Positions 7,329 through 9,472 of a stretch of 23,440 bases of DNA are shown here, piece after piece. How positions within the stretch are numbered: the first letter of the stretch is position 1; each line of letters starts with the position of its first letter. The position numbers and the translations under genes were made by a program. The notes below the pieces were generated by a model, which made no database searches, was not told the DNA's origin, and worked only from the letters and a program-made list of their open reading frames with translations. Source of the DNA: a virus (lineage: Duplodnaviria; Heunggongvirae; Uroviricota; Caudoviricetes); the IMG/VR virus record IMGVR_UViG_2563366964_000006; one strand, written 5' to 3'.

Positions 7329-9472
7329 TGCGGGCCTCCTGTCGAACCACGATTCGCCTGTTCGCCATTGACGTTGTTAACCGCCTGCGCGATTTCCCGC
7401 TCATCAAGCATCACTTTGGTAGTGATAACCAACGGCGGTTGCTTCTGCTGCTGCGGCAGCAGATAGGCATGACCCCCTGTTGTCGCCGGATTGGTCTGGC
7501 CTATTGTCGTCGGGAAACTCCACCACGATTTGATTTCGTCAACGGCATCCATCAGTCCTGGTCTGGCCTTGACGGCATCGAGCATTCTGGCTTCGCTGCT
7601 GGAGTAATTATCAGCCTTGAGGCGAGCACGGGCATCAGCATCACCACGCTCAACATGTACCAGAGGGGCATCCTGTGCCCCCTGATAGAGCGCTAATGGA
7701 GCCAGTATTTTCCCGAGTAGCCGACCACCGATACTACCGCCATTGCCTTTAATCGCTTCCCACGTACGGCCAAGAACGCCCCCGGTGCTTCCACCGCCAC
7801 CGGGTAATTTAATGCCACCGCTGGTAAGGAAGTTGATTCCTGCAAAAGCTATTGCCGCAGCCGTCATCGCCTTTATACCTGTAGTCGCACCGGAAATTGC
7901 GGTCGTAAGCTCTGGATACTCTTTCGCATAATCCGTCAGTTTCGAGGCAAGGTCAGCATATAAATCGGCAACAGGCTTCATTGAATCCTGCTCAGCAAAC
8001 ATTTTTTCAGATTCGAATTGCTGGGATTTATAGGCATTGGTTGATGACATTACATCGAAAGATGTAGCGCCCGCACCAAGAGCATTTTCCGTACCTTTTA
8101 TTTGCTCATTTATAAACTCACGTTTCATTATGTTTGTTTTAAGGGCTGTACTAGCTTGTTGGTCTGCAATTATTTTTGATGTAATTGAAGAAATGACAAT
8201 ATCCAGTGCAGATAAGATATCGCCCTCTTTATCTGTGCCTTTGTATTTCTTGGCTTCAGCTCGTAAGTTTTGGACTCGTTTATCGGCGGATACAATTCCG
8301 GACACAGCATTCATGACAATATCAGGCGTGCTTAACCCTTTTTGTTTCTGGTCTGCCAGATAATCAATGTAGCCAAGCGGCTTACCATCTTTCCCTCTGA
8401 ACCTGTAGTTCTTTAATGTATTCTGAATATCAGCACTTGTTATTTTATCAAGCAAGTTATTTACGTTAGTAGATGCGGCGCTATTATCACCAGCAGTTTC
8501 AGCATTCGCCTGTAACAACGCCAAGATTTTGTCAAAATCCCCAAGGCCAGACATGCCAATACCTTTAGCCTTAGTAAGTGTTAATGATAAAGATGATGCC
8601 ATATCTGCAAGCTCATATTTACCATTCTCACCAGAGCGAATGGATTTATCGAATACAGCAGGCAAATCCTTTGCAGAAATACCAAAGTTTTTAATTGCCG
8701 CGATACCAATCTGTGATAATTCCTGTGGATTAGCCCCTGATGCAGTTGCGTAACGAGTAATTTCCGGCAAAATGCTCATAGCAGTCTTTTCATCAAGACT
8801 ACCTGCAAATAGTGCGTTGAGCGTGTCCTGTGCTGATTCAGGAGTACCACCGCCATAGCGTACGGCATTTCGTATTGCATTATTAATAACGGGAATCTTT
8901 TTAATACGTTCTGGGCCGGATAATTCGTTATATGCGGTATTCGCAATTTCAGCGTTACGGTTATCAAAAGCCATCTGCCGTTGCACGGGGTCTTTAAGCA
9001 CCATTGTTGCAGCTGTAACACCACCGGCTACTGCACCTACAGTCGAAACAATCGGCTTGAGGCGCCGCAGACGCGTCATCGTATTACTGACGCCGCTTAA
9101 CTCAGTACGCAGCTCCCTGACACGCTCCGACATCCCCCGGAATGCACGCGACTGTTCACGCGCCGACAATGAGCCGCTGCGGGTCAGTCGGTTATAGGCT
9201 GCCATGGTCTGCTGAATCTCGCGCTGAATCTCACGTTCGGCCCGAATGCCAAGTGTTGAACGGGCAGAACTGGCGCGGCGGTACTCATCCTGCAGGCTGC
9301 GTGATGCACGAATGGCCGAGCTGGTATTTTGCTGCTGGCTTTTCGCCTGTTCGTCGCTCGCTTTCTGAGTGGTTTTCGTCTGCTTGAGAATGTCCTGCAT
9401 CGCCTGACGCAGGACTTTAGATGCACCGTCTTTTGCCAGGAGGGAGAGTGCAAGTTGAAGGTTACGTGCCAT
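7325..9472 (-). CDS. Tail tape measure protein
   Basis: 715 aa, coiled-coil-rich N-terminus, Gly-rich C-terminal region; ATG at 9472 with AGGGAGA upstream; located after the frameshifted chaperone pair. Confidence 0.9.
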   Translation of the reverse strand: MARNLQLALSLLAKDGASKVLRQAMQDILKQTKTTQKASDEQAKSQQQNTSSAIRASRSLQDEYRRASSARSTLGIRAEREIQREIQQTMAAYNRLTRSGSLSAREQSRAFRGMSERVRELRTELSGVSNTMTRLRRLKPIVSTVGAVAGGVTAATMVLKDPVQRQMAFDNRNAEIANTAYNELSGPERIKKIPVINNAIRNAVRYGGGTPESAQDTLNALFAGSLDEKTAMSILPEITRYATASGANPQELSQIGIAAIKNFGISAKDLPAVFDKSIRSGENGKYELADMASSLSLTLTKAKGIGMSGLGDFDKILALLQANAETAGDNSAASTNVNNLLDKITSADIQNTLKNYRFRGKDGKPLGYIDYLADQKQKGLSTPDIVMNAVSGIVSADKRVQNLRAEAKKYKGTDKEGDILSALDIVISSITSKIIADQQASTALKTNIMKREFINEQIKGTENALGAGATSFDVMSSTNAYKSQQFESEKMFAEQDSMKPVADLYADLASKLTDYAKEYPELTTAISGATTGIKAMTAAAIAFAGINFLTSGGIKLPGGGGSTGGVLGRTWEAIKGNGGSIGGRLLGKILAPLALYQGAQDAPLVHVERGDADARARLKADNYSSSEARMLDAVKARPGLMDAVDEIKSWWSFPTTIGQTNPATTGGHAYLLPQQQKQPPLVITTKVMLDEREIAQAVNNVNGEQANRGSTGGPQ

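Follow-up and report, generated by a model that had tools for sequence, protein, structure and literature searches.

Tail tape measure proteins (TMPs) with a PF10145/TP901-type core have been described from P2 (gpT), SuMu, Mannheimia phage vB_MhM_3927AP2 and Klebsiella phage ST405-OXA48phi1.1. The gene for such a protein is flanked on one side by the tail chaperone genes and on the other by the baseplate hub and DNA-circulation genes, and the core occupies residues ~130-500 of 600-800 and is followed by hydrophobic helices and a Gly-rich stretch. Here we analyse the TMP gene of the viral record IMGVR_UViG_2563366964_000006, a 23,440-nucleotide stretch of caudovirus DNA (hereafter the window), which has the same relative domain position, the same gene neighbourhood and the same helices and Gly-rich stretch after the core. 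It differs from the described TMPs in composition: their GC content at third codon positions (GC3) is the same in the core as in the rest of the gene, whereas in the window the core is 0.2-0.25 lower. We conclude, with a probability of roughly 0.78, that this AT-rich kilobase is the central folded TMP domain of a Mu-like prophage, swapped as old alleles of the same length between near-identical prophages.

The shuffling of modules and domains within genes for phage structural proteins is a known form of mosaicism (Smug et al. 2023, PMC10684548). In the same survey TMPs were often mosaic by sequence, but no genuine recent case was confirmed, the reason being coiled-coil repeats and split open reading frames (ORFs) (PMC10684548). 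The window locus shares with the mosaicism described there abrupt identity borders inside one gene, near-identical genomes and reticulate combinations of modules; unlike the TMP cases of that survey, it has flanks that are 98-100% identical around a core of ~50% identity, without coiled-coil repeats or split ORFs. It is a clean, recent, domain-level TMP swap, in which intragenic mosaicism of a tail protein is nothing new in itself and the additional feature is that all alleles are AT-rich. The features on which this rests are as follows.

7325..9472, minus strand: tail tape measure protein gene, 715 aa (ORF list and translation; PF10145 match)
7920..8969, minus strand: AT-rich block, GC 0.407, GC3 ~0.33, TMP residues ~168-517 (change-point fit, sliding GC, GC by codon position, codon table)
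7786..9040, minus strand: tract replaced relative to locus L006 (Salmonella-type allele, P0115), ~50% nucleotide identity, flanking tail genes 98-100%
8060..8963, minus strand: tract replaced relative to locus L007 (Citrobacter freundii allele, P0011), 59-84% nucleotide identity, 86-99% upstream

Sliding GC drops from 0.55-0.59 to 0.39-0.43 between ~7900 and 8950, and a two-breakpoint likelihood fit over positions 6000-11000 delimits the block at 7920-8969, with a GC content of 0.407 inside versus 0.550 outside (2*dlnL = 68.7); the dip that the initial annotation had placed at ~7960-8950 is thus real and correctly located. The lowest GC of any 990-bp stretch in the 23.4-kb window, 0.404, is found at 7981, against a minimum of 0.464 and a mean of 0.546 (sd 0.030) elsewhere. 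GC3 is 0.326 for residues 174-504, compared with 0.578 and 0.526 for the N-terminal and C-terminal parts, and the 26 other ORFs of the window, at 0.42-0.67, all lie above the block. The frame is unbroken across the gene, and the assignment of the dip to residues 174-504 of a 715-aa protein is arithmetically sound. Both GC3 and the codon table show an AT shift in the TMP centre, so that base composition and codon usage are atypical in the manner often taken to mark foreign DNA. Within the block we found no Rfam family, no tandem repeat and no excess of promoter-like sites, and hence no sign of an embedded non-coding element. An antisense ORF inside the block (8037-8363, plus strand, 108 aa) is spurious, the equivalent frame carrying stops in the related loci L007, L008, L014 and L016. 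An inserted moron, intein or extra domain is ruled out as well, the block being a conserved core of constant length at the same position in at least 128 diverse TMPs.

The exchange was observed directly by comparing the tail genes of L006 and L007 with window positions 4260-11803. L006, which carries a centre allele 35% identical to that of the window, is 98-100% identical in nucleotides from 11803 to 9020 and from 7734 to 4260, the two exceptions being short variable patches near 5229-5307 and 4350-4418; identity falls to 37-54% over 9017-7900 and is back to 97% by ~7734. Mismatches number 659 of 1313 positions inside 9040-7786 (50.2%) versus 85 of 6369 outside (1.3%), and the chaperone genes upstream of the TMP gene remain 96-100% identical despite the divergent centre. 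L007, with an 81%-identical centre allele, diverges only in 8963-8060 (231 of 956 mismatched, 24.2%, versus 159 of 6726 outside, 2.4%; Fisher p = 2e-115), and from 8059 to the end of the gene at 7325 has a single mismatch, at 7382. Its upstream border at 8963 nearly coincides with the GC change point at 8969. Both relatives therefore show the abrupt change in nucleotide identity by which mosaic genes are recognised, and the proposal of a mosaic tape measure holds: near-identical relatives differ sharply only in the AT-rich block, and the modules recombine. Chimeric contigs or other assembly artefacts are ruled out as the source of the variants, since these occur in several independent assemblies and sources: 53 blocks of the assembly collection contain the exact window protein, and the 35% allele is represented by four protein clusters drawn from NCBI, ENA and Logan.

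Segment identities and module lengths were determined for the best 120 homologues, with modules clustered at 90% identity. One group has window-like flanks around a more distant centre (N-terminal module 0.97-0.99, centre 0.80-0.81, C-terminal module 0.87-1.00), another the reverse pattern (N ~0.72, centre 0.89, C ~0.75), and four clusters combine 0.92 and 0.88 in the flanks with 0.35 in the centre. Altogether 35 N/centre/C combinations were distinguished. The window is N2/M1/C2; the N2-C2 flanks also occur with centres M3 and M6, and centre M1 is found in the four backgrounds N1-C1, N2-C2, N1-C3 and N9-C2, the incongruent, reticulate pattern of a mosaic gene. The length of the centre hardly varies, being 331 aa in 106 of the 120 with an overall range of 327-336 aa, and total TMP length is mostly 713-722 aa and for nearly all of them 708-736 aa. 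Tail length scales with TMP length, and differences of a few residues would be expected to alter the tail by ~1 nm or less. Given this constancy, the suggestion that the segment changes tail length finds no support.

The alleles are old. At least 10 central alleles were distinguished, 20-35% apart at the nucleotide level; the synonymous divergence (dS) between them ranges from 1.2 to unmeasurably large, with a ratio of nonsynonymous to synonymous divergence (dN/dS) of 0.02-0.11, and two closer pairs have dS ~0.33 and dN/dS 0.016-0.037. From low dN/dS and saturated dS it follows that the central domain is under strong purifying selection and that the alleles are of long standing. Hypermutation and a diversity-generating retroelement were rejected, as the differences are mostly synonymous (dN/dS 0.02-0.11), no reverse transcriptase is present among the called genes of the related loci and the block has no tandem repeats (no dedicated search for dispersed repeats was made).

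The exchanged cassette coincides with a structural unit of the predicted protein, whose parts are arranged as follows.

8951..9472, minus strand: N-terminal module, aa 1-173, Arg/Gln/Ala-rich long helices, GC3 0.58, swapped separately from the centre
8996..9052, minus strand: hydrophobic segment 1, aa 141-159, IVSTVGAVAGGVTAATMVL, top 19-aa Kyte-Doolittle window (1.81), just upstream of the block
7973..8992, minus strand: central all-alpha domain, residues ~161-500, the sole confidently folded part of the AlphaFold2 model
8282..8851, minus strand: PF10145 (PhageMin_Tail) core, residues 208-397, profile match
7811..7867, minus strand: hydrophobic segment 2, aa 536-554, MTAAAIAFAGINFLTSGGI, Kyte-Doolittle 1.42, just downstream of the block and followed by the Gly-rich stretch
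7328..7960, minus strand: C-terminal module, aa 505-715, hydrophobic helix, Gly-rich linker and C-terminal part, GC3 0.53, swapped separately from the centre

The AlphaFold2 model was computed for the monomer from 44 sequences and has a mean predicted local distance difference test score (pLDDT) of 58.9. Residues 161-500 are modelled as stacked short helices, with ten-residue block means of 63-92 (mostly 80-92), and residues 1-160 and 506-715 are mostly below 50, rising briefly to 51-59 at 611-640. The two most hydrophobic long segments of the protein, aa 141-159 and 536-554, bracket the confidently folded domain; the exchange seen with L006 takes in both of them, and that seen with L007 lies inside them. 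Module borders approximately follow domain borders (161-500 in the model, ~168/517 by GC, ~145-170 and ~471-562 by breakpoints). On the strength of the model, the cassette is best described as a predicted all-alpha domain of ~330-350 residues that contains the PF10145 core. A search of the PDB gave no sequence match for the domain and no significant fold match, the best (E = 0.027) being to generic helical repeats.

How much of the dip follows from the protein itself was estimated by combining the amino acids of the block with the codon usage found in the phage's other structural genes to compute an expected composition. The protein-based expectation of GC alone already falls from 0.58 to 0.50 in the block, and the fraction of Phe, Tyr, Met, Ile, Asn and Lys (FYMINK) in the TMP centre exceeds that of the flanks in 128 of 128 diverse representatives (mean difference +0.13; window +0.19, the 81st percentile), so an excess of residues of this type is a property of the domain in every family member examined. 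One might accordingly read the dip as a mere by-product of core composition with no separate history, which we consider barely credible. Observed GC is 0.41 and not 0.50, GC3 is 0.33 where 0.58 is expected, and recombination borders are seen directly. The drop divides roughly into ~45% amino-acid composition and ~55% synonymous codon choice, so that pure amino-acid composition is refuted as a complete explanation. In addition, controls that share the domain or the architecture have no GC3 dip in the centre: centre GC3 is 0.81 versus 0.72-0.73 in the flanks of a Ralstonia phage, 0.31 versus 0.32-0.35 in SuMu, and 0.54, between flanks of 0.66 and 0.50, in the Klebsiella phage, and the profiles of Mu gp42 and P2 gpT are flat. 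The AT shift is therefore not required by the protein, nor does it reflect a recent event in this phage.

The synonymous component extends over all codon families of the block, non-optimal codons included. Compared with the other structural genes, Leu CTG falls to 7% from 56% and Leu TTA rises to 37% from 5%, Gln CAA to 43% from 10%, Ile ATA to 21% from 4%, and four-fold codons ending in A or T to 73% from 38%. As non-optimal codons share in the shift, this is not a signature of translational optimisation. It is what would be expected of a recent single import of the centre from the phage of a lower-GC host, with AT-richness as an unameliorated signature, and an origin in a lower-GC phage had indeed been the initial annotation's explanation. 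GC3 of 0.33 with a genome-wide style of AT shift reaching TTA, ATA and CAA, a centre K/(K+R) ratio of 0.74 where the flanks have 0.26 and 0.55, and breakpoints that match the GC change points all speak for such an event.

The wider pool of alleles, however, largely refutes it. We measured ~40 related loci, comprising 20 viral contigs and 10 metagenome contigs from two collection scans and ten enterobacterial gene loci. The dip is present in 20 of 20 viral contigs (centre GC 0.40-0.48 versus 0.50-0.57 in the rest of the locus) and in 10 of 10 metagenome contigs (0.39-0.43 versus 0.52-0.57). The ten enterobacterial loci have a centre GC3 of 0.31-0.50, an N flank of 0.49-0.64 and a C flank of 0.39-0.61; the contrast against the C-terminal flank is weak in a few of them, and the weakest contrast overall is that of a Trabulsiella locus (0.42 versus flanks of 0.51 and 0.50). 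The dip thus occurs in all 30 scan loci and most of the ten enterobacterial loci, including alleles 35-89% identical to that of the window, all in prophages of 50-57% GC, and the 35%-identical allele is itself AT-rich (centre GC3 0.33). In close relatives the segment is neither absent nor compositionally normal, as it should be if it were recently acquired foreign DNA. Searches of genomes, viral and metagenome contigs, phages and representatives yielded no low-GC carrier or donor of the centre; among 1.8 billion representatives, Serratia oryzae, Pectobacterium odoriferum and Yersinia are the sources of its nearest named relatives, and the centres of the low-GC phages that were found, SuMu and the Mannheimia phage, match it at only 31-33% identity. 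A recent import is accordingly very improbable. The synonymous AT shift is common to most alleles of the enterobacterial lineage and is not shared by the Klebsiella Mu-like phage, P2, the Ralstonia phages or SuMu; the block is therefore an old compositional island of the whole allele pool and no recent acquisition by the phage of the window.

Two accounts of how the island came to be AT-rich may be considered. In the first, which we hold to be possible but at clearly less than even odds, the alleles diverged in a lower-GC phage pool outside the sampling and were imported repeatedly into enterobacterial Mu-like prophages, where they slowly ameliorate. The homologous domain follows genome composition in the Klebsiella phage, P2, the Ralstonia phage and SuMu, so AT-rich coding is not obligatory, and alleles of higher-GC hosts (Dickeya-type) have a GC3 of 0.45-0.50. 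When the third-position changes of the two closest pairs of alleles are polarised with an outgroup, 36 run from A/T to G/C and 11 from G/C to A/T, that is 77% toward G/C, against 66% produced by parsimony bias in a simulated stationary AT-rich process; the excess points toward amelioration but is not significant (P ~0.075). Moreover, this account calls for at least 10 separate imports at one and the same site, the scans of genomes, viral contigs and metagenomes yielded no donor, and recombination with an AT-rich donor requires similar flanks, of which none was observed.

In the second account, a serious candidate if still somewhat short of an even chance, low GC3 is maintained in place. The alleles may be too divergent to recombine internally and so escape GC-biased gene conversion or codon selection, settling at an AT-biased mutational equilibrium, or AT-rich or rare-codon coding may itself be selected, for example for translational pacing or H-NS binding; the AT-rich hypervariable O-antigen loci of enteric bacteria offer an analogy. 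With dS from 1.2 to infinite between alleles, GC3 nevertheless stays at ~0.33 (0.30-0.35) in most of the synonymously saturated ones while the flanks of the same genomes are at 0.5-0.6, and every sampled carrier is an Enterobacterales prophage of 50-57% GC. Other window ORFs of lower GC3 include tail-fibre genes (0.42-0.44). Maintenance in place sits less well with the count of promoter-like sites, which is not elevated in the block, with the Klebsiella relative, which has the same architecture and little dip, and with the trend in third-position changes, which points weakly the other way.

Our preferred reading of the locus as a domain swapped between near-identical prophages can be put as a sequence of steps. 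The centre exists as many old alleles of the same length, 35-89% identical in protein, synonymously saturated and held by purifying selection. Where Mu-like prophages co-circulate, their homologous TMP genes recombine in conserved sequence at the domain borders, in or next to the two hydrophobic helices, so that one old centre allele is replaced by another of equal length while the N and C modules stay with the other tail genes. The N and C modules may thereby stay compatible with the chaperones and baseplate hub of their own phage; the centre, if it has no allele-specific partner inside the virion, would for that reason be free to be exchanged, and with allele length constant both the ruler function and tail length would probably be preserved. 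A swap would alter the surface of that portion of the TMP which makes no phage-specific assembly contacts and which is ejected into the periplasm and inner membrane when the phage infects, and the benefit is likely a changed compatibility with host entry factors or with TMP-targeting defences. The low GC consists of two layers, a domain-wide residue excess and a lineage-specific synonymous AT shift.

Several points weigh against this reading. A role in host-factor compatibility or defence is suggested by analogy with siphovirus cases, and the TMP of the window belongs to a contractile-tailed, Mu-like phage. Within the alleles dN/dS is low, with no sign of diversifying amino-acid selection. The quality of the structural model makes the predicted domain borders approximate. 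Finally, the breakpoints vary by event (aa ~145-152/562 versus ~170/471), which indicates recombination in conserved flanks and no fixed cassette site.

The identity of the gene follows from its profile match and its position. The protein matches PF10145 at 59.6 bits over aa 208-397, above the gathering cut-off of 33.2. In the window its gene follows the ORFs 10385-11803, 9996-10370 and 9613-9996 and precedes 5994-7328 (DNA_circ_N) and 4805-6010 (gpP-like); in loci encoding the identical protein it likewise sits between sheath, tube and chaperone genes and DNA_circ_N/gpP-like genes, the place of a tape measure gene, after sheath, tube and tail chaperone and before the baseplate hub. The late region of the identical-protein and related loci reads Phage_Mu_F, Mu-like protease, gpT capsid, FluMu_N, Gp36, Gp37, sheath, two small proteins, TMP, DNA_circ_N, gpP-like hub, Gp45, Gp46, Baseplate_J, Gp48, tail fibre and assembly proteins, and resolvase, with Gp44-48 genes downstream of DNA_circ_N. 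By this Mu-type gene order the window is assigned to a Mu-like prophage of Enterobacteriaceae. Citrobacter, Escherichia, Salmonella, Enterobacter and Kluyvera are the sources of the nearest named homologues. Among sequenced phages even the closest are distant: the TMP of Klebsiella phage ST405-OXA48phi1.1 is 60% identical in the N-terminal part and 36% in the centre, and phage Mu's own TMP (gp42) belongs to a different Pfam family, PF20155, and was unmatched in the segment searches. No nucleotide match for the gene was obtained by blastn against the phage collection or by megablast against complete E. coli genomes, and none for the C-terminal module in phages by tblastn; a protein word-index search with the centre alone returned 11 fragments only and was uninformative.

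Two overlapping small ORFs upstream of the TMP gene, 9613-9996 (127 aa) and 9510-9758 (82 aa), have no Pfam match; they sit in the place of the two tail assembly chaperones, a pair that many phages express through a programmed frameshift. Within the TMP gene there is a second small variable patch, the Gly-rich stretch at 7735-7810 after the second hydrophobic helix, which has indels and an identity of 0.78-0.83 even to otherwise identical relatives. Another patch, at 4350-4418, is 0.76-0.77 identical to L006 and L007 inside otherwise 99-100% identical DNA and may be a further small exchanged or indel segment; the surrounding 4350-4508, inside the Gp45-like ORF 4228-4947, has a local GC of 0.34-0.43, and GC3 of the whole ORF is 0.45.

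At window positions 1-2177 the minus strand carries a gene for a tail-fibre C-terminal part (1407-2177, Gp53-like_C) and one for tail-fibre assembly (964-1404, Caudo_TAP), after which a second Caudo_TAP gene (399-992) and an ORF at 1-399 lie on the opposite strand. This arrangement is similar to that of the invertible G segment of Mu, and the GC3 of the genes is 0.42-0.44; in L007 and L008 a resolvase gene lies just beyond this fibre region. A variability map of the whole window drawn from the fetched loci was uninformative, the loci having been picked via their TMP. Two bins lack blastn matches in most of the related loci that span them: 13201-13500, at the FluMu_N-like gene 13095-13475, in 19 of 29, and 15901-16200, upstream of the protease gene, in 11 of 18, L008 having a holin gene inserted there. 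The sheath gene of the Yersinia-type locus L014 (3335-5089) was called at 584 aa rather than 472 aa and gave a faint Phage_sheath_domII match, pointing to an additional sheath domain in part of the lineage.

What an exchanged TMP centre might do can be approached from other phages. Both ManYZ and the defence nuclease SNIPE make contact with TMPs: SNIPE is found in association with lambda gpH and ManYZ, mutations that allow escape lie in the TMP, and a phage whose TMP diverges in an internal region shows different behaviour and escapes (PMC13190303). The prophage protein Tab blocks tail assembly via the TMP (PMC10884400), and HK97 gp15 is cited in these papers as a further case of a TMP linked to entry factors or defence (PMC13190303, PMC10884400). 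As in these systems, an internal TMP segment differs between otherwise similar phages, and the TMP is exposed at the inner membrane during injection; unlike the window phage, they are siphoviruses with unrelated TMP sequences, so the connection to the alleles described here would be one of analogy.

A different parallel lies in the AT-rich hypervariable loci of enteric bacteria. O-antigen clusters, for example, have many diverged alleles with a GC content below that of the genome, which are exchanged via conserved flanks and for which no donor is known. The TMP centre appears comparable in that many deeply diverged alleles of lower GC occupy one locus and are exchanged by recombination in conserved flanks; it is unlike them in being one domain of fixed length within a single essential phage gene.

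A more far-reaching possibility, which we consider unlikely, is that the central TMP domain is a specificity cassette, whose old same-length alleles are kept by balancing selection through entry factors, TMP-targeting defences or superinfection exclusion, with AT-rich coding maintained in place actively or passively, in the manner of O-antigen loci. For the interpretation of phage genomes, the locus warns that a GC dip inside a phage gene need not mean recent import. The persistence of low GC3 across synonymously saturated alleles provides a compact test case for the AT-richness of enteric hypervariable loci. Prophages that are 98-100% identical in the compared tail genes and differ only in one length-conserved domain are near-isogenic material for studying the role of the TMP core in injection and in sensitivity to defences. 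Should the domain prove to be a specificity cassette, it would join the invertible tail fibre as a second determinant of host interaction in Mu-like myophages.

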